Shown: positions 1 through 29,501 of the stretch, one piece after another
Layout: each line of letters starts with the position of its first letter
How positions within the stretch are numbered: the first letter of the stretch is position 1
Source of the DNA: Candidatus Heimdallarchaeota archaeon
Lineage (GTDB): Archaea; Asgardarchaeota; Heimdallarchaeia; JABLTI01
Length of the DNA: 29,501 bases
Direction of reading: 5' to 3'
NCBI GenBank assembly: GCA_030614005.1
Contig: JAUWKS010000042.1
Location: forward strand, 1-29,501
Notes under the pieces: model-generated
What the model was told of the DNA's origin: nothing
The model's input: only the letters and a program-made list of their open reading frames with translations
Databases searched by the model: none
Made by a program: the position numbers and the translations under genes

Positions 1-30
1 ATTCGTACAGCTATTCTAAGAGGCATTTAA
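1..30 (+). CDS. Possible 3' end of a gene entering from the left edge (...IRTAILRGI*)
   Basis: Frame 1 is open from base 1 to TAA at 28-30, followed by AT-rich intergenic DNA. Too short to verify. Confidence 0.3.
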   Translation: MRTAILRGI

Positions 31-338
31 AAAGAAGAAAGGGTATTGAATTGTAGGAGAATCACTATGCAAAATTATTGATATTTCTATGAAAAAAGAT
101 ACTTGCTTATTTTCTTTGACTGTGGAAAATTTAAATATTAGTTAACGAAATAGAATCATAATTTTCCCCTACTATTGACTTATATATCAATTTAAAATTC
201 AAATAGTTTTCTAAACCTTGAGGAAATAAACAAACTAAAACCCGCTTGTTCAAATCGCGCTGGGTCCACAAAATTTATACTTTTTAGTATTGGTTATATT
301 AATTAAGCTAAATTGACCATATTTATCAAGGGATTAGG

Positions 339-3808: not shown

Positions 3809-3879
3809 GTTAACGCACTCTTAAAGAGTTGGTGTTAACTTTTGATTCTCTGCGAGTCCGCCCAACTCCCGCGAGGGAG
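3809..3879. other. Two stem-loops at the tnpB 3' end (candidate IS right end / omegaRNA scaffold)
   Basis: GTTAAC..ACTCTT-A-AAGAGT..GTTAAC (3809-3839) and CTCCC-GCGA-GGGAG (3866-3879). Confidence 0.45.
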
Positions 3880-4269
3880 GAACTTTCGTTTGACGTTTGG
3901 CTGTGTATCGCTAAAAAACTTCTCTCGAAAGACTCGAATATCTTTCAAGAGTCGTTGCCTGACCACAAGGCGTTTCTGTGATAGTGCTAGCAGAGCGAGG
4001 AAGCGCTGCATTTGTGTTCCTGCACTGCTTGTGTCTCGATCTATTTCTAGCCCACAATCACAACTAATAGTTCGTTCGGAGAGTTTGCGGTTCTCTTTAT
4101 TCATGCAGTAACTGCATCTTTTGGTTGTTCTTCGTTCACTGATCCTTATTACGTTTTTACCCAGCTTTTCTGCTTTGTAGGTTAAGTATCCAGCGAAGCG
4201 ACCAATCGAACCACTGCTTTGCATGGTTCTATGTCTGCTTTTATCATTCTTCTTATCGCTCTTCTTGCT
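3835..4269 (-). mobile_element. tnpB: 3' remnant of IS200/IS605-family tnpB (Cas12f-like)
   Basis: GRFAGYLTYKAEKLGKNVIRISERRTTKRCSYC...SCDCGLEIDRD matches the TnpB C-terminal Zn ribbon and RuvC-III Asp. RuvC-I/II and the N-terminal part are absent. Confidence 0.85.
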
Positions 4270-4380
4270 CTTACTCATTGCTCTCAGAACGCGTGGTGGA
4301 ACCATTGTTGGTCCTGGAGTAAAGACAAGTTTTTCATTCGAATTATAAAAATCTTCAAAACCACTAGTTAGTTGATTCAT
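4270..4380 (-). pseudogene. 5' fragment (37 codons) of a class V PLP aminotransferase, fused in frame to the tnpB remnant
   Basis: KLVFTPGPTMVPPRVLRAMSK is the typical N-terminus of serine-pyruvate/alanine-glyoxylate aminotransferases. The rest of the enzyme is missing. Confidence 0.75.
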
Positions 4381-8032: not shown

Positions 8033-11000
8033 TTACTTTACAACGGTTATTGTTGGAGTTTGCACTACTCCAATATGAGTATCATTAATTATACCTACTG
8101 TATCCACAATCCTACAATAAAACGAAACCGTTCGTTGTTTATAGGACCTAAATAATCCCTTTCGCATTGAAGGTGCTTTCCACTCGAAAGATTCCAAAAC
8201 GAAGTTCTCGCCTTTTTTCACTCGAGTTTTTAATCTGTACCTCTTAATTAGTTTAGCTCTGGCCTTCTTAGTAAATTGTAAGATATGTATTTCTCTAATA
8301 TCACTATGGGCTTTGAATTGTAATTTTGGGGTTATTTCTGTAACATAATTACTGCTAATTCTCGATTTAAGTGGAGGGTTTCCAAGTAAACTAAAATTAA
8401 TCAATTTTGACAATGGAGGTGAAACTTTGATCGAAGTAGTGGTACTGGATCCTCTACCATTAAAGACGCAAAGTATATGCCACTTGGATGAACACATACT
8501 AAGAGGTATTACCACAGGCAAATCAATTGTGAAAGTTTTTCTTGAAAATCTGGATTTCTTTTCATATAATTTGATTAAACCTCTTTGTGATAGCCCCCAT
8601 AAGGTTATTTTACCACGAATATTATTTCTTGAGAGAGTAGCTTTGACTTTAACAAAAGTTTCTCCAACAGGGTTAGGTGATGTTGTTAGATTTGTTATGG
8701 AATGTGTTTTATCTCTTGGAACCCTGACCTTTACACATAATTTATGAGCAGTGGCTAAAATTTTTCTACTCTTTCCATCTCGAACAATAAATCTTATCTG
8801 AAACTCACCAGTATAATTATTGAGTTGAATTGGAATTGGTAGGTAACAAAAATCAACTAGTGATGCTTTTTCTAGGTTAAAAGACTCTTGAAAAGATCTT
8901 CTTCTTGCACCACTTCCCTTAGTTAAGGGGACAAATTCCGCTTCTACTTTAACTGGATGTGAAATTTTGGATTGTAATATTGATCGACGCCATTTTATCT
9001 TTATTGCTGGAACAATTAATGAATAATCAACTTTAGATGGAAAGTTATGAACAGAGACATTTTTGACAAATTTAGATTCTTTGAAGAATTCTTCTCGTTG
9101 GAATGTTGGAGTAGCAGCAACTGTTTTTGTGGAAGACCCAGCAGTTCGATTTGAAGTTTTAGATTTTTGTTTCGTCCTCGATGCATTTGTTTTTGCACTT
9201 TTTGAAATACGAGGTTTTGGCAATACTACACTTTGTGTACGGTATCTAGAACTTGACGCTGTTGATGCATAAGCTTGCACTTTGCCCCTTGATCCTTTCT
9301 GCAGAGATTTTGATCTAGATGATGATTTCTTGGGGTAAGTCTTTGCTTTCACAGGTGCTTTTGTTCTAGTGGTCTTCTTGTGTTTAGCAGATGAATATCT
9401 CTTTTTAATGGATTTCTTACTTGATTTTGCAGGTGGTGACCTAGTTCGTGTTGGAAGCTTCTTTGTTGACTTTGCGGGTCGAATAGTTGCTACACGTTTT
9501 GATTTCAGCGAGGAGGAGGAACGTCTAACTGATTGAGCAGCCAAAGGTCTTGATGTGCGACCTGCAATGGGTTTTGGGGGTGGTTTTTTAGCTTTTTCAA
9601 GAAGTTTCAATCTCTCAAGGCGTTTTTTCTCCAAAACCTTTTCTCGTTTTATCTTTTCGCGTTGTGTTTTAGCTGCTTGAGCTTGTTTAACTTTCAGTCG
9701 TTGGCGTTCCTTTGCCATTACTTTTTTACGTCTTGCTCTGGAATCAAATTGTAGTTTACGAGCGATGGCACTTTGTGAAGTATCTTTAGTTCTTACAGGT
9801 TTTACTGCTTTTGTTTCAACAAATTCAGATACCGATTTATCGGGTTGACCTAACATTTCACTAAAGACTCTTCTAGGTCTGCCGTTCATTAATCCCAAAC
9901 TTTTGATAAGATTTGCAATATTGTTGTGATTTTGTTCATATAAATAAAACATAAATGTAGCTGCAGAAATAGGAGGAGCTATTCGAGCTGTTCCCCACAA
10001 CATAATAAGAAGAGGAGCAAGTTCGCTTTCTTTCATTCGTAATTCAGTTAACTCTGGTTTTAACCAGATAAGTAGGGCACGCAAAGATTCATAGATTTTC
10101 CCAGGAGGTCCACCTGTTTCTGGATTGTGATTATAATATTTAGCGAAAAGTCCGCCTGACGCTTCGATGCTAGGGTCTCCTTGGAATTTTGCGAACATAC
10201 CAAAGTTTACTGCTCTTTTACGATGTTCGTAAAGTGTATTTCCTTTTATTTCAGGAATCGTTGTGCCAGCTCTAACCATCTTAGCACCTTTCAATGCTAA
10301 TGCTTGAAGTAATAAGATAATTGAAATTCGAATACTTTGATCATATTGTGCATCAAAGAATCGACACTCTATGGTTCCATAGACTGTATATGGATAAGCA
10401 TCTACATACCGGTCATCGGGAATTTCTTTTCGTACATGTCTTGAGAATTGGGTTTTAGTATAAGATGAACTAACGTGTGGTAAATAATCAGGCATATTTG
10501 GACCCAATTGTCCGGAATTTTCTTTTAACCGAAAACTTCGAACACTGTCCGGAGCTAAAACCATTGTTCTTCCATCATTACCCTTCTTCAGGATAATACG
10601 GCCAGCTGGCTTTCCATTTACAAATGGAGAAGTATTAGACAAAGCTATCAGATGCGGAATATAAGCTCGAATCATGTTATAAGCAGCGCTTTTTTCAGAC
10701 TCATTTTTGAATCCACCAAGGTGGTGATGTTCTCCACAAGTCACTCCAGCTCGATATTCGGATTGATAAGGATTGAATCCCAGTGCTTGAATATTATATC
10801 CTTTAGTAATTGATTGAGAAGCAGCTAAGTAGAGAGTATTTACCCACCAATCCAATTCTTCAACATATTCACAAGGAGGAGTTACTAATTCTAATAGCCA
10901 GGTTATTTGTGAAATATTTGGATCAGGACCAAAAACATTAATCGCAATGGATTTACCATTGACTGTATATTCAATTTGGACATAGCGAATCATTTTTCCA

Positions 11001-11275
11001 TGTCTTTCTACGTCCTTTCTCGAAACACGTTTAATTTTTTTCCTGATATAATCTGGCACATTTCTTGTACTACTTGTCAAGGATTTTAAGAAACCTAATG
11101 CACCATTAAACATCTGATCCCAGACTGCAACTAATTCTTTTCCGTCCTCTAAAATTTCTCCACGTTTATCAGTAATGAAATTCTCAACTTCTAAACCATG
11201 AGTAAAAGGCAACTTACGTAGGGTACTTGTAGCAGAATTTGCTGATTTTATGTTTGTGGGACGTTTATTGCTCAT
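8033..11275 (-). CDS. Large multidomain protein: GCS2/YbdK-type carboxylate-amine ligase + Lys/Arg/Ser-rich linker + beta-rich C-terminus
   Basis: HGLEVE, LELVTPP, CGEHHHLG, LIALSNTSPF and TIECRFFD match glutamate-cysteine ligase family 2. About aa 500-730 are low-complexity and basic. About aa 740-1080 show alternating beta-strand patterns. Confidence 0.8.
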   Translation of the reverse strand: MSNKRPTNIKSANSATSTLRKLPFTHGLEVENFITDKRGEILEDGKELVAVWDQMFNGALGFLKSLTSSTRNVPDYIRKKIKRVSRKDVERHGKMIRYVQIEYTVNGKSIAINVFGPDPNISQITWLLELVTPPCEYVEELDWWVNTLYLAASQSITKGYNIQALGFNPYQSEYRAGVTCGEHHHLGGFKNESEKSAAYNMIRAYIPHLIALSNTSPFVNGKPAGRIILKKGNDGRTMVLAPDSVRSFRLKENSGQLGPNMPDYLPHVSSSYTKTQFSRHVRKEIPDDRYVDAYPYTVYGTIECRFFDAQYDQSIRISIILLLQALALKGAKMVRAGTTIPEIKGNTLYEHRKRAVNFGMFAKFQGDPSIEASGGLFAKYYNHNPETGGPPGKIYESLRALLIWLKPELTELRMKESELAPLLIMLWGTARIAPPISAATFMFYLYEQNHNNIANLIKSLGLMNGRPRRVFSEMLGQPDKSVSEFVETKAVKPVRTKDTSQSAIARKLQFDSRARRKKVMAKERQRLKVKQAQAAKTQREKIKREKVLEKKRLERLKLLEKAKKPPPKPIAGRTSRPLAAQSVRRSSSSLKSKRVATIRPAKSTKKLPTRTRSPPAKSSKKSIKKRYSSAKHKKTTRTKAPVKAKTYPKKSSSRSKSLQKGSRGKVQAYASTASSSRYRTQSVVLPKPRISKSAKTNASRTKQKSKTSNRTAGSSTKTVAATPTFQREEFFKESKFVKNVSVHNFPSKVDYSLIVPAIKIKWRRSILQSKISHPVKVEAEFVPLTKGSGARRRSFQESFNLEKASLVDFCYLPIPIQLNNYTGEFQIRFIVRDGKSRKILATAHKLCVKVRVPRDKTHSITNLTTSPNPVGETFVKVKATLSRNNIRGKITLWGLSQRGLIKLYEKKSRFSRKTFTIDLPVVIPLSMCSSKWHILCVFNGRGSSTTTSIKVSPPLSKLINFSLLGNPPLKSRISSNYVTEITPKLQFKAHSDIREIHILQFTKKARAKLIKRYRLKTRVKKGENFVLESFEWKAPSMRKGLFRSYKQRTVSFYCRIVDTVGIINDTHIGVVQTPTITVVK

Positions 11276-11319: not shown

Positions 11320-12747
11320 TCATTTTGGTTTTTGATGTAATAGATAATCAAACAAATATTGTTGAGTAAATGGATAGCTCTCTTCTTGTTCTTCGAGAAT
11401 CTTTGTTATCTTGGATGCAAAATCCATTAGTGTGGTTACCTCAGAGACATTTAATTTTCCATTTTTAAGTTGTTGAATCACAAAACTTCTGCGAATATCA
11501 ATTATATCTGCAAATATATTGAGAATATACAACTCTTCGTAGACATTACTTCCAGAAGGATCGAATAATGCATCTGTATTGAAGTACACACCAGAAATAG
11601 AGCACAATTCAGCAACAATTTCAGAAAGTTTTTCTTGAGTCTTAACTTTCAATATTTTATCGAAATCCTTTCTTGTTACTTTAGATTTTTCAACACCTTC
11701 GCGGTCAATCACTTTTTGAGGCCAATAAATTTTCAGCATACGCAGAGCATTTAATCCCAGAACATGTCTTATATGATCAAAGGTTAATCCTTGTTCTTTT
11801 GCTTTTTGGGAAAACAAGTAAGTAAGATGATCACTTGCTTGTGGGACACCGAAGTAATTATGATCTGTTCCATACATCGTGGATAAATGCCAATCCTCTA
11901 CAAGGTCAAGGCAATTTTTGTAGAAAATTTCACAATCGTCGCCTCTCATTCCTGAAGTTTCAGTTTTAATATTGGAGTCACCTAAAATTTCATACATACC
12001 TTTCGTTGTATAATCAAAGCCAAAATGCCCAAGTATTACTGTAAAATCATCATTCTTTGCTCGTTTTCTAACTTCCATTGTCACCTGATGTATCTCTTGA
12101 GCTGTTTGATAATTTTGAACATCAAAAATAACTGGTAATTTATAATCAACTGCTGTACGAACTATTTCAATAACATTTTCACTAACTATATCGTTTATCC
12201 AGTTTTCTGAAAGGGGATGGAGTTTTAATCCTCTTGCGCCATATTCCACACATCTGAGAATCTCATCAATAGCTTTTCCCTTATCATTTGGATTTACACG
12301 ACAAAACGGAACCAATCTCGAGCCATACTCGAGTGTTTGTGCGCGAGTTATGATATAATTATTCGAACGAACAAAATGAGGTGATGTTTTTGCATGGAGA
12401 GTATCATGTAATGGAAAAGTAACTATTTTGTCTGCAAACCAACCGATATTCTGTGTAGTTCTTTTATCTCGAAAGATATCTTGTTGTAATCTAGTTGCAG
12501 GCATTGTGAAATCATTTGCTTTTTCTGGTAATTCAAACGCATAATCCTCCGGATAACTTGTAATCCTTTTGTGAACATCGTATTTTAATTTCTCATAGAA
12601 ATCTATGTGATCCTTCGGTCTTACGATTCTGTAGTCTTTACCTTTTCCGCTTACAACCATTTCCTTTCCCAAATGTGTGTGAGTGTCCACTACATTAAGC
12701 TTCAGCGGTTTCTTCTTAGGATCCTCTTTATCAAATATAATTATCAT
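11320..12747 (-). CDS. Amidohydrolase-superfamily metallohydrolase (Amidohydro_2-like) with C-terminal extension
   Basis: VVDTHTHLG (HxH), RGLKLHP, LPVIFD, ILGHFG, MYGTDH. Confidence 0.85.
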   Translation of the reverse strand: MIIIFDKEDPKKKPLKLNVVDTHTHLGKEMVVSGKGKDYRIVRPKDHIDFYEKLKYDVHKRITSYPEDYAFELPEKANDFTMPATRLQQDIFRDKRTTQNIGWFADKIVTFPLHDTLHAKTSPHFVRSNNYIITRAQTLEYGSRLVPFCRVNPNDKGKAIDEILRCVEYGARGLKLHPLSENWINDIVSENVIEIVRTAVDYKLPVIFDVQNYQTAQEIHQVTMEVRKRAKNDDFTVILGHFGFDYTTKGMYEILGDSNIKTETSGMRGDDCEIFYKNCLDLVEDWHLSTMYGTDHNYFGVPQASDHLTYLFSQKAKEQGLTFDHIRHVLGLNALRMLKIYWPQKVIDREGVEKSKVTRKDFDKILKVKTQEKLSEIVAELCSISGVYFNTDALFDPSGSNVYEELYILNIFADIIDIRRSFVIQQLKNGKLNVSEVTTLMDFASKITKILEEQEESYPFTQQYLFDYLLHQKPK

Positions 12748-23798: not shown

Positions 23799-24383
23799 TT
23801 TTGCGACAAACAATTGAATTTCTTACAACACGTAAAAACAATCCTTAAAATACATGGAAAAGCTGCAATTGTTATTCCTGATAATGTTCTTTTTGAAGGT
23901 GGCGCAGGTGAAACTATTAGAAAAAAACTTCTTACAACATGTGATGTTCATACATTGCTTAGATTACCAACCGGACTTTTCTATGCTCAAGGTGTAAAGG
24001 CTAATGTTCTTTTCTTTGATAAGAAACCTGCAAGCGATAAACCATGGACTGATAAACTCTGGATTTATGATTTACGAACCAATAAACATTTTACACTCAA
24101 GGAAAGTCCTCTGCGTTTTACAGATTTAGAAGAATTTATCGAGTGCTATAACTCTGAAAATAGACACGAGAGGAAAGAATCCGAGAGATTCAAAGTATTT
24201 ACTTATGATGAATTAATGCAGCGAAACAAAGTTAACTTTGATATTTTCTGGTTGAGAGATGAGAGTATGGAAGACCTTGAAAATCTTCCTGATCCCGAAG
24301 TTATTGCTCAAGAAATTGTTGAAAGTCTTGAATTTGCTTTGGAGCAATTCAAAGGTATTTATGAAGAATTAGCAGAGGAATGA
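23799..24383 (+). pseudogene. hsdM: C-terminal fragment of type I restriction-modification methyltransferase subunit
   Basis: KQLNFLQH...AAIVIPDNVLFEGGAGETIRKKLL...LRLPTGLFYAQGVKANVLFF...W.YDLRTNKHFTLK...NFDIFWLRDES. SAM-binding motif I and NPPF are missing, and there is no upstream coding sequence. Confidence 0.88.
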
Positions 24384-27300
24384 ATTCGCTTTATCATATT
24401 GATAAAGCTTTATTTCATCCAAATCTTTTGATGGATCAATAATCATAATACATTTTTGATGATACGTGTTCCCCTTCTTCAACCAATGTCCTAATCCATA
24501 TACTCTAAAACGTTCATTATAGAATCGATGATGTAAATGACCAATAACTAAATGTGTTACCTCTGTGATTTTTGGCAACCAACTTCTACCAGTTTTAATG
24601 AGCTCTTTTTTCGCTTGAATGGCAGCTACTTCAATACCAATATTCTTTGCTAATTTAGCATCTATACCAATTTTATTTCCATGGACAAAAAGCACTTGTT
24701 CTGTTTTAGTTTCAATATAGACATAGTCTTGATGGAGAAAGCCAGAGAACTGTTCGAGATTGCCATCATGAATAGAAGAACTTCGAACAAACACTAATTT
24801 TGACCAATATCCCTCTTGTATTGCTTTTGTTTTTAATTGGTTGAATGCTTCCTTACTTTCCTCAGATACTTTATCCAGCAAGTCACCATTTAGAATAATA
24901 ATAACCGCTTGTTTGCTGAATTCACTAATAGCTTCAAAAAATTCTTCCTGAAAGCATAACTCATGTGTAAGATGAATATCGGAAAAAGCAATAATCCTAT
25001 TCTCTTGTGAATCGATTTGCAAATTGGGTTCAATTGCTTCTGTATTATCAAGTGACTCTAAATTTGAAATATTGACCATATCTTTCACCAATTGTTTCAG
25101 ATATTCTTTGGAACCATCGGGCAAAAGACCCAGAATCTCTCCATAACAGTATTCACAACCTCGCTCACAAGAGCATTGCTCTAATCTCTGCAATGCTTGC
25201 TGGGCTACTTCTTGTAAATGTAAAAACAAATATTCAGCGTTTCCATTTGGTTCTCCTTTATCATAAATTGCCAATTGATTTGCATTATACACGAGTTCAA
25301 ATTCAGAAGCAGGTATAGAAAGAACCATCTCTACCTCAATGAGCAGAATTTCACCAAATAATTTTAGCATTTTCTTTGTAGTAAGGTTTTTTGGTTTTAA
25401 TAATTCAGTTTCCATGCTTATGACGATACCTTCTGATTTTTCGGCTATTGCTAACTCATTCGACTCTTGCTGTGTCAATTCCTGATAAAAATAGTTGCTG
25501 TTCTCATCCCTGCTTTTATCATTAACTAGCATTGAATTTGGATTGGCATTTGCAATTATCTTTGGCTTTTGGTTGGCAGTGATAAGTCCAAAATTGATGT
25601 TCACTAATCTTGTTCCTTGAATTTTCTTTGAAAATACACCAACGGAAATTGTTGGGTCATATAATTGATTCATTGGAAGTAAAGAGAAAGTATCATCCGA
25701 ATCACCGGTAAAGTATTTTTCTACTAAGATAGTTTTTTGCCATTTATCGAAATCAGTAACTAGGTACTTCTGTCTATTCCTAACAATAAGATTGTCAGGC
25801 AAACCTTTCTTGAGCACATCTTTTGGGGAAATTTTACCTAATGAAGTTGTTTGATCAGTTAACCGAATGGAATCAATACCTTTCTTCAATTGGATAGACC
25901 AATTAGCACTAATAGCTCTAATAGATGAAGGAACGAGAACATCATTGTTTTTTAGTTGTCGAAGCCTATTTTCTCCTTGACTGGTAAACAATATTTTTCC
26001 AGATACTTTTTTTAGCACGTTGAAACAAATGAGTTTAGTAAGTTGCTGTCGAGCTATTTCATAGACTTTTCTTCCTTCTTTCAAAAAGAAGGACATTATT
26101 TCTTGATAATCATTGATACCATATCGTAAATGGAGCACAAGCAATCCGGCTAAAATCTTGGGGTTTTGTCTTGGATAGAGTATTGGATTGCAAGCATTTG
26201 TTTCAAGTATAGTACGTAATATTTCTAGATGATGCCAATAGAAATTGTCTCGAGAGTTAGCAAGATCGAAAATACAGACATTCACCCGTCTTTCACTTGG
26301 GTTAGAACGGTTACGAGCGAATCTTTGAACGATACCATCCTTTTGGGTTATTGGTATCCCGATATTTACTACTGTTTGGACATTTGGAATATTCACTCCT
26401 AGCTCTAGAACAGAGGAGGAAATAAGTATCTTAATTCTGTTCCTTGTTCCCTTCTTTATCTCATCAAGTATCTTTTTTCGTTGAGCATAAGGCAAGTCTG
26501 CATGAATAATTGCTACAGTTATTTCTTCAAAGAATGGGTGCTTTTTCCTAAGCTTTGCGCACAGTCGTTCCGCCAATAGTTCAATCTCTTCTTTAGAATC
26601 CATAAATACTAAGCAGAATTTTCCCGGCATAGAGTCTAGTTCATGCCAAAGATCGGCAAGAAATGGTACAGTATGTTCTTTTGTTATTCCAAGGAATTCA
26701 TGTTCTCCACGTACAGGAGGGCAAGTAATAATTCCCGCACCTTGTAAGAAATCATCCCGAAAGTCAACAACATCATCAATCGTTGCAGAGGATAGGACAA
26801 CTTGACACTTGTGATTATTGTTCTTGTGTATCTGTATAAATCCCTTAATAATTCCTGCTGCAAAACCTTCAAAGGCATGTATCTCATCAAAAACCATATA
26901 CGGGCTAGAACTTATTTTATCGAGTAATGGATTCGTTTTTCCATGCTTTATCTGGTACCATACTTTATCGAATGTTGCTAAAAGGATGTTTGGTGGATGT
27001 TGCTCTGTTTCGTAGAGCTCTTTTTTCTGTGCATGTTTACTAACTGTTGAACCTGTAGCTCTACTAATATCGCCACTATACATCTTAACGGTTAATCGTT
27101 TACCACTTTGCTCTTCTAATTTTACAACTAACTCTTTCATTCTATCAAATTGGTCCAATAGAAGCTGCTTTGAAGGGTAGAATACTACAAAAAAATCAAT
27201 CTCACCTGTTAATATTTTAATTATTCCAGGAACACTAAACGAGAGTGATTTTCCTGAATACGTTCCTCCATTAATGATTAATCCATTATTAGTGGTTGTT

Positions 27301-27551
27301 GAGTTCAGCAAATGCTGTATTGCTTCTGCTTGATGCTCATAGGGGTGAGCACTTTGCACTATTGACTCAAGAACTAGTCCAAGTCCTTCTGCTTCTTTAG
27401 GTAAAAGATCAGACCAAACTAAATCGTTCCTAACTCTTGGTTGGGATGGGGGTAATGTAAGTATTGGAACCCACTCTCTTGGAGTAGTTACTTCTAAAGG
27501 AAACTTTTGAGTTGCTTTGGTTCGTCTATTAGTATTATTTATTTTAGTCAT
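24369..27551 (-). CDS. YprA/MrfA/Hrq1-type SF2 (DExH) helicase with Zn-binding DUF1998-like motif fused to a calcineurin-like metallophosphoesterase
   Basis: Helicase: YEHQ, GTYSGKS, YPSKQLLLDQ, YSGD, DEIH, SAT, SVLELGVNI, QRFAR and CSCERGCEYC. Phosphoesterase: FSDIH, NGDLLD, IHD, FVHG and IGHLH. ATG 27551 has AGGTGA 5 nt upstream (ORF track gives GTG 27560). Confidence 0.88.
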   Translation of the reverse strand: MTKINNTNRRTKATQKFPLEVTTPREWVPILTLPPSQPRVRNDLVWSDLLPKEAEGLGLVLESIVQSAHPYEHQAEAIQHLLNSTTTNNGLIINGGTYSGKSLSFSVPGIIKILTGEIDFFVVFYPSKQLLLDQFDRMKELVVKLEEQSGKRLTVKMYSGDISRATGSTVSKHAQKKELYETEQHPPNILLATFDKVWYQIKHGKTNPLLDKISSSPYMVFDEIHAFEGFAAGIIKGFIQIHKNNNHKCQVVLSSATIDDVVDFRDDFLQGAGIITCPPVRGEHEFLGITKEHTVPFLADLWHELDSMPGKFCLVFMDSKEEIELLAERLCAKLRKKHPFFEEITVAIIHADLPYAQRKKILDEIKKGTRNRIKILISSSVLELGVNIPNVQTVVNIGIPITQKDGIVQRFARNRSNPSERRVNVCIFDLANSRDNFYWHHLEILRTILETNACNPILYPRQNPKILAGLLVLHLRYGINDYQEIMSFFLKEGRKVYEIARQQLTKLICFNVLKKVSGKILFTSQGENRLRQLKNNDVLVPSSIRAISANWSIQLKKGIDSIRLTDQTTSLGKISPKDVLKKGLPDNLIVRNRQKYLVTDFDKWQKTILVEKYFTGDSDDTFSLLPMNQLYDPTISVGVFSKKIQGTRLVNINFGLITANQKPKIIANANPNSMLVNDKSRDENSNYFYQELTQQESNELAIAEKSEGIVISMETELLKPKNLTTKKMLKLFGEILLIEVEMVLSIPASEFELVYNANQLAIYDKGEPNGNAEYLFLHLQEVAQQALQRLEQCSCERGCEYCYGEILGLLPDGSKEYLKQLVKDMVNISNLESLDNTEAIEPNLQIDSQENRIIAFSDIHLTHELCFQEEFFEAISEFSKQAVIIILNGDLLDKVSEESKEAFNQLKTKAIQEGYWSKLVFVRSSSIHDGNLEQFSGFLHQDYVYIETKTEQVLFVHGNKIGIDAKLAKNIGIEVAAIQAKKELIKTGRSWLPKITEVTHLVIGHLHHRFYNERFRVYGLGHWLKKGNTYHQKCIMIIDPSKDLDEIKLYQYDKANSFLC

Positions 27552-27564
27552 GTAATTCACCTGT

Positions 27565-29469
27565 TTAGCTGAAATATTGTTTGTAAATTTCCAAGTGCTC
27601 TGTAATGCAGTTCAAAATTCGCAGCAAATTTCTCGGAGGAGACCAATCTGACCAAAAACTCTTTAGCTTTATCTGCTGCGAGTGATCAATCGCTTCCAAA
27701 GTAGCAATTAGATTGATTGTTCTTGTATTGATATGGTCAAAGTTACTTACTAACTCTGGGAGATTTTCATCTTCGGTGGGAATTTGTCCTATAGAGAATA
27801 GTAATTCCTGTACCATTCGATTATTGGTGTTCAATTGATAATAGCATTGCCTGTTAATTTTTTCACGAATTAGCAACCCTTGAGTAACCATTTGTGAGAG
27901 AATTCTTTGGGTTTGGTTTTGTGTCAATTGTAATACTTCTCGAAAATGGTTTGTTGAATATTTTGCGAAATATAGTTCCATCTGAAGAGCATAGGAGAGT
28001 AAAACTAATACAATAATCAAACTTCTATCCTGTTCCTTCTTTAGGAATTTAGTTAGCTGTAACTTCTCCCGACCCCGTTTATTATTCCAAGTACGCCATT
28101 TCTGCATTGCAATTTCTCGAAACACACTGCGAGTTTTTCTAGCAGCGAGTACTCTTTCTTCACTTCCAGCATACAAATCAGCATATTCTGAAGCAAACTT
28201 GTTCACTAAGGAAAGATCGTGTTCGATTCCAGAAGGACATATTACAAAAGGGTTAAAATTAGCTTCTTGAAAACATTGTTTGATTTTGCTCGTACTGAGC
28301 TGTTTTTCCAGACGGAATTCTTCAAAACAATTAATGAATGCTTTTCTAAAAGTTACTAAATAGTGCTCGAATGCATGGAGAAAGGGAATAGTTTTCCCGT
28401 AATAATACACTGGGAGTGAAACTGCTGCTGTGATTAGTTGTCTGATCTTCTTTTGTGCGTTGCTTTTTATTCGATAGACCTCTTGTCCTTTTTGTCCTAG
28501 CACGAGTGAACAATCATCAATGGTGAGCACTCCTGCTTGCATTGCTTCAAACATAGTTATCAAAGCAAGCACTCGCACAGGTTCTATAAGATCAAAATAT
28601 AACCCAAGCTTGTCTATATCCGATTTTGTTCGTCTTTTATGGAATAATCCGGCGCCCATAAGAGCAGGTTCAAGACCAATCTTTCTAAAAATTTCATCAA
28701 TTTCTGAGCGGAAGCCCCTAATAAACTGATTAAGGATCACATCTAACGGTGCATATGCAAAACTCGTTTTTCGACTAAAGGAAAGGAACATATCCATTAC
28801 AAACCGTGAAGTAACTCTTCCACGCGTCCAGAGCCCAACTTTTGCCCCTTCTTCTTTGAGCAATTCAAAGAAAAATCTGTTACTTTGTGCTTCCAGTAAC
28901 ATGCCATAATAACGAGACCGCACTCCTCCTGCAACCTTAATTTGCAAATCAATCATCTCAAATAACTGACGATTAATATGTTCATTCGGGTATTCTTTTC
29001 TCAGGTTTGTTTTTCTGAGGTATAACCCACCGCCAATATTTGATAGATGTCTAGCTTGTAAAAAGGACTGGTTGAATGTTTTCTTCTCACCTATAAAGGA
29101 AACTACTGTTTGCAAGAATTGGTATTGTTCTTTAGTGAACGGTTTCTCTTGAGATGATTCACTCGATAAGCTCTTTTTTGATTTCTTCTCTTTTGTTTTT
29201 GCTCTACTAATAGTGTAGTGATATTTTTCTGGTTCAAATTGTGCTAATGTTTCTAAGAATTTCTCTATTCTTTTGTAGCGTTTCCCTGAAAAGAAAATAT
29301 ATTGTACTTTTTCAAGTGGTATTTCATTTTTACAGATAGTAAGAACGAATGTTTTGTCACTCTTCCTTTCTAACTTTATATTTTCATTGTCATAAATTAC
29401 AAAAGCATACGAAGGATCTTTTTCCAACAATACTTGTGGGATTGACCCTGCTATTTGATAATAGAGCAT
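27565..29469 (-). CDS. cas1: Solo Cas1-family integrase-like protein with long C-terminal extension and winged HTH (may extend past the window edge)
   Basis: EIPLEKVQYIFFSG (Cas1 N-domain); GMLLEAQSNRFFF (E193); APLDVILN; GLEP...GLFH (H277); LYFDLIEPVR (D293/E296); FREVLQLTQNQTQRILSQMVTQGLL..E...YYQL (wHTH). The frame stays open to base 29501. Confidence 0.78.
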   Translation of the reverse strand: MLYYQIAGSIPQVLLEKDPSYAFVIYDNENIKLERKSDKTFVLTICKNEIPLEKVQYIFFSGKRYKRIEKFLETLAQFEPEKYHYTISRAKTKEKKSKKSLSSESSQEKPFTKEQYQFLQTVVSFIGEKKTFNQSFLQARHLSNIGGGLYLRKTNLRKEYPNEHINRQLFEMIDLQIKVAGGVRSRYYGMLLEAQSNRFFFELLKEEGAKVGLWTRGRVTSRFVMDMFLSFSRKTSFAYAPLDVILNQFIRGFRSEIDEIFRKIGLEPALMGAGLFHKRRTKSDIDKLGLYFDLIEPVRVLALITMFEAMQAGVLTIDDCSLVLGQKGQEVYRIKSNAQKKIRQLITAAVSLPVYYYGKTIPFLHAFEHYLVTFRKAFINCFEEFRLEKQLSTSKIKQCFQEANFNPFVICPSGIEHDLSLVNKFASEYADLYAGSEERVLAARKTRSVFREIAMQKWRTWNNKRGREKLQLTKFLKKEQDRSLIIVLVLLSYALQMELYFAKYSTNHFREVLQLTQNQTQRILSQMVTQGLLIREKINRQCYYQLNTNNRMVQELLFSIGQIPTEDENLPELVSNFDHINTRTINLIATLEAIDHSQQIKLKSFWSDWSPPRNLLRILNCITEHLEIYKQYFS

Positions 29470-29501
29470 CCTAAGAAAATGACGATGTTCTGTTTGAATA
29501 G

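Follow-up and report, generated by a model that had tools for sequence, protein, structure and literature searches.

A predicted winged helix at the C-terminus of a giant Asgard Cas1-like protein: a candidate DNA-recognition module in a lineage without detectable Cas2

This analysis concerns the C-terminal extension of a Cas1-like protein encoded at one end of a 29,501-nt contig from a Candidatus Heimdallarchaeota archaeon (assembly GCA_030614005.1, contig JAUWKS010000042.1); this entire contig, G000:C29:1-29501 in our numbering, is referred to below as the window. A preliminary description of the DNA had placed on the minus strand, at 27565-29469, an open reading frame (ORF) for a Cas1 of 634 amino acids (aa) with a C-terminal extension of about 300 residues. 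The ORF is present and codes for 634 aa counted from its first ATG, but these residues do not make up a whole protein. The frame remains open up to base 29499, at the very end of the contig, and over its final 94 nt the window overlaps, without a mismatch, one end of the 4.4-kb contig C48, which holds the upstream 765 codons in the same frame. Three further copies of the gene occur in the same genome: an intact one of 1378 aa on contig C63, with 88% nucleotide identity to the window copy; one divided between contigs C8 and C18, with 91-94%; and one of 1392 aa on contig C9, with about 65%. Metagenomic homologues are 1357-1385 aa long, and the window ORF aligns only to their last ~630 residues. 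Because of the overlap with C48 and the intact paralogues we take the window protein to be 1378 aa long, and the window ORF is the C-terminal 46% of this Asgard 'aCas1' protein. The N-terminal part of the full protein, which lies off the window, has winged-helix and zinc-ribbon regions ahead of the Cas1 fold. The parts within the window are as follows, with residues numbered from the first ATG of the ORF and model confidence given as the predicted local distance difference test score (pLDDT).

27565-29501, minus strand: C-terminal part of the 1378-aa giant Cas1-like (aCas1) fusion, 644 codons and a stop, the 5' part being on contig C48
29155-29412, minus strand: Cas1 N-terminal beta-strand domain, aa ~20-105 (strands 22-60 and 86-89 in the AlphaFold model; VIA structural alignments start at model residues 11-28)
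28237-29154, minus strand: Cas1 alpha-helical catalytic domain, aa ~106-411, with E193, H277 and D293 (VIA Z 19-20; E/H/D invariant)
28105-28236, minus strand: extension part 1, two helices, aa 412-455 (helices 413-456 in the predicted models)
28051-28104, minus strand: extension part 2, a basic linker rich in tryptophan and arginine, aa 456-473 (net charge +5, pLDDT 51-66, predicted to be flexible)
27793-28050, minus strand: extension part 3, the winged helix and its leading helix, aa 474-559 (pLDDT 82-95; structural neighbours with a winged helix-turn-helix)
27568-27792, minus strand: extension part 4, the C-terminal tail, aa 560-634 (helices 570-596 and 613-633, with a WxDWxPP loop)

The earlier identification of the protein as Cas1 holds at the level of the fold, while no sequence-profile library makes that assignment. 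An AlphaFold (AF2) model of the window ORF, built on 21 sequences (pLDDT 82, predicted template-modelling score (pTM) 0.67), was compared with known structures: in Foldseek the best match has E 1.5e-8, and all 40 PDB matches at E<=1e-3 are Cas1 or casposase. Structural alignment with VIA gives Z 20.0 against A. fulgidus Cas1 (4n06, 276 residues aligned), 19.5 against 7cr6, 19.3 against the casposase 6opm (root-mean-square deviation 3.1 Å over 250 residues of the catalytic domain) and 19.1 against the RT-Cas1 7kfu. Only nine columns are invariant in a 16-member family alignment; they include E193, H277 and D293, spaced as expected for Cas1, and also N247. As modelled, the protein has the two-domain Cas1 fold with an intact E193/H277/D293 site, and is a putative DNA integrase/nuclease. 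With regard to sequence, no Cas1 match was found in Pfam, NCBIfam, PADLOC, a phmmer search of the PDB or a search of the PDB with the family profile, and the curated threshold for membership of a Cas1 profile was not reached. The sequence link to Cas1 is solely transitive and runs through a distant family member, P0020, which matches PF01867 at 7.2e-12 (45.5 bits against a cut-off of 22.3 bits) and the window query at E 1.5e-4.

The limits of the extension follow from the same structural comparison. VIA alignments to Cas1 chains stop at model residues 411-419 (residues 48-342 of 6opm_B, for example, are placed on model residues 106-415), and therefore the Cas1 fold spans aa ~20-415 and the extension aa ~412-634, that is, window 27568-28236, or roughly 220 residues. 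The core thus reaches well past residue ~340, where it had been thought to end, the extension is correspondingly shorter than the 300 residues first given, and it does not double the size of a Cas1, being instead the final sixth of a fusion of several domains. A model of the extension by itself, built on 16 sequences, has pLDDT 80 and pTM 0.74. The first part of the extension, the pair of helices, is retained by the Cas1 gene of a paralogue on contig C110 that is split into separate genes (profile positions 559-1025 of 1184). The tryptophan- and arginine-rich segment that had been noticed beforehand, MQKWRTWNNKRGR, was located at aa 455-467 (window 28069-28107). In the C-terminal tail, the loop between the two long helices holds W606-x-D-W609-x-P-P; neither Foldseek nor VIA returned an informative structural neighbour for this part (aa 560-634).

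Between linker and tail lies the winged helix. A helix-turn-helix (HTH) pattern had been suggested at about 27830-27960, and AlphaFold with Foldseek, the check chosen in advance, does find a winged helix there, with some 87 residues following it. The predicted elements are a leading helix (474-496), helices 506-513 and 517-529, a hairpin (533-546) and a further helix (551-559); the core, from helix 506-513 to the hairpin, has a pLDDT of about 90, and the recognition helix (aa 515-526) carries Q517, N518, Q519 and R522. The extension as modelled has the topology of a helix-turn-helix with a beta-hairpin wing. When it was submitted alone to an exhaustive VIA search, all of the 50 top rows were chains containing a winged helix-turn-helix (Z 5.5-6.8); with the full model, matches to winged helices reach Z 7.5. 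In Foldseek such matches have E about 1e-2. The neighbours returned by the two programs are CadC, SmtB, CzrA, HlyU, SqrR, MarR, PadR and Z-alpha proteins, and a fold search of the ESM Atlas with the extension yields ArsR/MarR clusters; like those of the feature search, these are generic HTH/ArsR matches that fall below trust levels. These scores are modest, yet they are unanimous and span the entire domain. Membership by sequence of a curated winged-helix family was not reached, the sequence hints of such a fold all being below threshold (RQC 14 bits, PCI 13 bits, HTH_54, WH_III-A and PDC-M05A). The structural resemblance to ArsR/SmtB, MarR and PadR regulators covers aa 437-586 and consists of three helices and a beta-hairpin wing with flanking helices. 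The extension differs from these regulators in having no Pfam match above threshold and no evident metal or ligand site, and in being fused to the end of an integrase where they are free-standing.

Selection has acted on the extension unevenly. Ratios of nonsynonymous to synonymous substitution (dN/dS, Nei-Gojobori), calculated among the three recent paralogues, are 0.11-0.16 for the catalytic domain, 0.08-0.15 for the winged helix, 0.16-0.22 for the whole extension and 0.22-0.44 for the tail, where selection is more relaxed. Between the window copy and the C9 copy, amino acid identity is 50% in the winged helix and 46% in the catalytic domain. Judged by this pattern of substitution, the winged helix is constrained as strongly as the active-site domain. 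Thirteen positions are invariant in the eight sequences of the main clade: W458, E479, Q480, R482, S483, Q517, N518, Q519, R522, Y544, N547, W606 and W609. The recognition helix reads QNQxQR throughout that clade and KY(E/K)RTR in a divergent clade (P0012/P0013), a clade-specific exchange of the kind expected of a specificity element.

The family is narrowly distributed. A search of 1.84 billion representative proteins gave 19 matches to the query, 12 of them below 1e-10, and the named homologues come from one Heimdallarchaeota and one Bathyarchaeia metagenome-assembled genome. A six-frame search with the tail alone found it in 6 of 399 genomes of the phylum, all of one genus, and wherever a contig end does not cut the frame it stands at the end of an open frame of 1190-1395 aa. 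An apparent three-way split in a sister species (G084:C11) was considered as a case of a free-standing tail and rejected, since the homology crosses the change of frame without a start codon, which points to frameshifts. That giant copy (L024:3825-7910) has two of these, one almost exactly at the boundary between Cas1 and the extension; in the same place the helicase and phosphoesterase are separate genes (815 and 211 aa), as they are at L025.

The gene belongs to a conserved cassette, with the order: a 541-aa protein with LAGLIDADG_3 and XRE-type HTH domains, the giant aCas1, and a 1063-aa helicase fusion. Downstream of aCas1 the window contains the following.

24369-27560, minus strand: operon partner, a fusion of DEAD/DEAH helicase, MZB (DUF1998) zinc domain and metallophosphoesterase, 1063 aa (Pfam)
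23814-24383, plus strand: 3' fragment (189 codons) of a type I restriction-modification (R-M) methylase gene (hsdM), convergent with the helicase gene and overlapping it by 15 nt at its stop

Pfam matches in the helicase fusion are DEAD (2.9e-14), Helicase_C (1.6e-15), MZB (1.4e-6) and, weakly, Metallophos, and this neighbour is kept in all paralogues and in a metagenomic locus (L008). A TnpB gene adjoins the cassette in the C63 and C9 copies and at L008; the TnpBs of C63 and C9 are 44% identical to each other and occur nowhere else in the genome. The minus-strand fragment at window 3910-4233 shares 82% identity over 108 aa with another TnpB, the multi-copy one of contig C8 (13 tblastn matches in the genome), and is probably a truncated insertion sequence (IS) copy inside the ORF at 3835-4380.

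In the C9 copy the cassette, from TnpB to helicase, lies between two perfect 18-bp inverted repeats set 11.1 kb apart (L006:916-933 and 12039-12056, equivalent to G000:C9:140915-140932 and 152038-152055). The 18-mer has 16 exact copies in the genome, mostly less than 300 nt from contig ends, and a cassette bounded by repeats that recur at many contig ends fits the role of transposase proposed for aCas1 (PMC10691335). Contig C5 carries two inverted copies of the same 18-mer, at 17-34 and 286-303, about 290 nt apart, an arrangement that suggests miniature derivatives. No convincing terminal inverted repeats came out of a search around L008 and around the copies in the window and on C63. On its upstream side the window copy ends in a multi-copy repeat at the contig break. 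A repeat present in more than 15 copies, which breaks many contigs, occupies window 1-160 and C48 1-210, and lies also, on C8 and C9, between the TnpB and LAGLIDADG genes; probably it represents an IS or TnpB-associated end or promoter region. Downstream, the window cassette is followed by the hsdM fragment and then by housekeeping genes. Homology between the cassette copies ends at about window 23806 for C18/C8 and about 24315 for C63: the C18 copy keeps the same hsdM junction, with a full hsdM-hsdS-hsdR set, and in C63 the junction is reduced to an 85-bp relic, next to which stands a different, co-directional hsdMSR. Because the closest copies end in such an R-M relic, the window copy may be immobile.

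Five or six shorter aCas1 paralogues occur in the genome besides. The one on C110 (L013, G000:C110:34833-42535) is a six-gene operon, the two giant genes in split form, coding in turn for a 217-aa ORF, a 682-aa protein corresponding to the N-terminal region, a 502-aa Cas1-like protein, a 173-aa protein with a winged HTH, a 778-aa helicase and a 234-aa phosphoesterase. We also considered whether the tail is the fused form of the 227-241-aa proteins found downstream of aCas1 paralogues of ~670 aa (on C9, C67, C78 and C122), and homology was not established: a first comparison with hhalign gave a probability of 76% (E 2e-5), and cleaner alignments gave 20% (E 1e-3) over 53 winged-helix columns only. 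The resemblance may be one of position alone, a winged-helix protein following Cas1, as in C110. The 90%-complete genome has no match to Cas2 (PF09827) or to PF01867, and neither a tRNA nor a CRISPR-like array of tandem repeats was found in the window. Elsewhere on the minus strand, a 1080-aa ORF (window 8033-11275) has a short, weak match to GCS2 (glutamate-cysteine ligase family 2) only.

Loci of this general kind have been noted before. In their account of TnpB, Altae-Tran et al. (2023, PMC10691335), with reference to Makarova et al. 2020 on aCas1 diversity, report TnpBs associated with aCas1 in two Asgard groups and propose that aCas1 acts as transposase for a separate family of transposons, a view that Koonin and Makarova (2022, PMC8730458) give in summary. 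The present family is of this catalogued kind, for which a function is proposed only. It shares with those loci (groups Cas1H-Asgard-1/-2) a highly divergent Cas1 that is accompanied by neither a CRISPR array nor Cas2, and its paralogues share the adjacent TnpB (C63, C9, L008) and terminal repeats (C9), whereas the window copy has lost its TnpB side at the assembly break and shows no terminal repeat. The passages on aCas1 in these two papers describe neither the domain composition of the giant protein nor its C-terminal winged-helix module. In comparison with the CRISPR Cas1-Cas2 integrase, the two-domain Cas1 fold and the E/H/D active site are held in common; the differences are the lack of any Cas2 or PF01867 match in the genome and of an array in the window, and the large additions at both the N- and C-termini.

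The closest functional parallel is offered by the family-2 casposases (M. mazei, A. boonei; PDB 6OPM), which likewise combine a Cas1-fold integrase with an additional C-terminal domain of HTH type, and which work without Cas2. That domain has 60-70 residues and its deletion abolishes integration; it is suspected of recognising the sequence upstream of the site, and is disordered in the crystal structure (PMC6977970). The extension described here is three times longer, with its wing and helical tail, and an extension profile run against PDB sequences matched no casposase chain at E<=10, nor gave any other informative match, so that it is indeed distinct from the standard casposase C-terminus and would be an analogue of the casposase HTH, not a member of the same family. 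The remainder of the system differs too, the giant protein having ~745 extra N-terminal residues and the cassette containing the LAGLIDADG-HTH protein, the helicase-phosphoesterase and, in the paralogues, TnpB; no polymerase of the PolB type is present among the cassette genes scanned.

Our tentative reading, which we hold with a little less than even confidence, is that the extension serves by analogy as the DNA-recognition module of a Cas1-type integrase that operates without Cas2. The winged helix probably binds DNA, as its modelled fold suggests, and together with the basic linker it would grip a duplex alongside the Cas1 active site, and this duplex would be either the target of integration or the ends of the incoming DNA. 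The extension would thereby give such an integrase its recognition of substrate or site, a role analogous, though not homologous, to that of the short C-terminal HTH that family-2 casposases require. All of the top structural neighbours of the extension are DNA-binding winged-helix proteins, and a role in recognition is plausible: the recognition helix shows the same degree of conservation as the catalytic domain. The loss of integration on deleting the casposase HTH (PMC6977970) provides a precedent, and the lack of a detectable Cas2 in the genome is in keeping with the proposal, although this does not assign to the tail the replacement of Cas2, since casposases also work without it.

Several observations weigh against this reading. 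Structural comparison gives the winged helix modest scores (Z 6-7.5; E about 1e-2 in Foldseek), and no cognate DNA site for it was identified. Winged helices are also found as modules that bind RNA or other proteins. No terminal repeats are detectable in the window copy, whose upstream end is lost in an assembly break, and the three closest copies end in a relic of an R-M gene and not in a clean transposon end. Finally, the isolated HTH of the casposase did not detectably bind DNA (PMC6977970).

A role in assembly would explain some of the same features, and we consider it unlikely without dismissing it: the flanking helices and tail would dimerise, and so bridge two Cas1 dimers, which is the work of Cas2 in CRISPR, or would dock the helicase-phosphoesterase. 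The best-scoring neighbours in structure form obligate homodimers, with flanking helices making up the interface, the tail consists of two long helices with a conserved WxDWxPP, the genome has no Cas2 that we could find, and the helicase gene is tightly coupled downstream. Yet the tail is the least constrained part of the extension (dN/dS 0.22-0.44), conservation is highest on the surface of the recognition helix and not on the flanking helices, and casposases tetramerise by their Cas1 domains with no bridging protein (PMC6977970).

The extension could alternatively be a transcriptional autoregulator, its winged helix binding an operator upstream of the cassette and holding expression of integrase and helicase low. 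Proteins of the ArsR/MarR/PadR fold class are mostly repressors, and the transposases of mobile elements often autoregulate; however, the cassette already encodes an XRE-type HTH in the upstream LAGLIDADG protein, the domain invariably forms the end of a giant enzyme, and no operator-like palindrome was identified, all of which make this improbable. That the extension is a functionless remnant, a fused neighbouring gene decaying within a domesticated or dying element, would suit the broken copies in the family (G084:C11, with its two frameshifts) and its occurrence, within the reference genomes searched, in a single genus, with a few metagenomic relatives, but it is very improbable given a confident model of the extension, motifs that stay invariant while the family diverges to about 23% identity, and clear purifying selection (dN/dS) across the three recent paralogues and a fourth at 36% identity. 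DNA recognition, assembly, autoregulation and decay are not mutually exclusive.

The family itself had been catalogued already; to this the present analysis adds the boundary between Cas1 fold and tail, the predicted fold of that tail, the selection acting on it and its narrow distribution, and it gives the invariant residues. Cas1-family integrases link transposons, in the form of casposons, with CRISPR adaptation, and to their arrangements this study adds another: a Cas1 core to which a large winged-helix module of its own is joined, the lineage having no detectable Cas2. A bolder proposal, which we regard as doubtful, is that the winged-helix tail is the specificity module that makes this Cas1-fold enzyme the self-sufficient transposase of TnpB-carrying Asgard elements, reading element ends or targets through QNQxQR without Cas2 or IHF, with clade-specific variants of the helix setting different insertion specificities. 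Were that true, it would represent a third independent solution to the targeting of Cas1, beside the Cas2/leader/IHF system and the casposase HTH.

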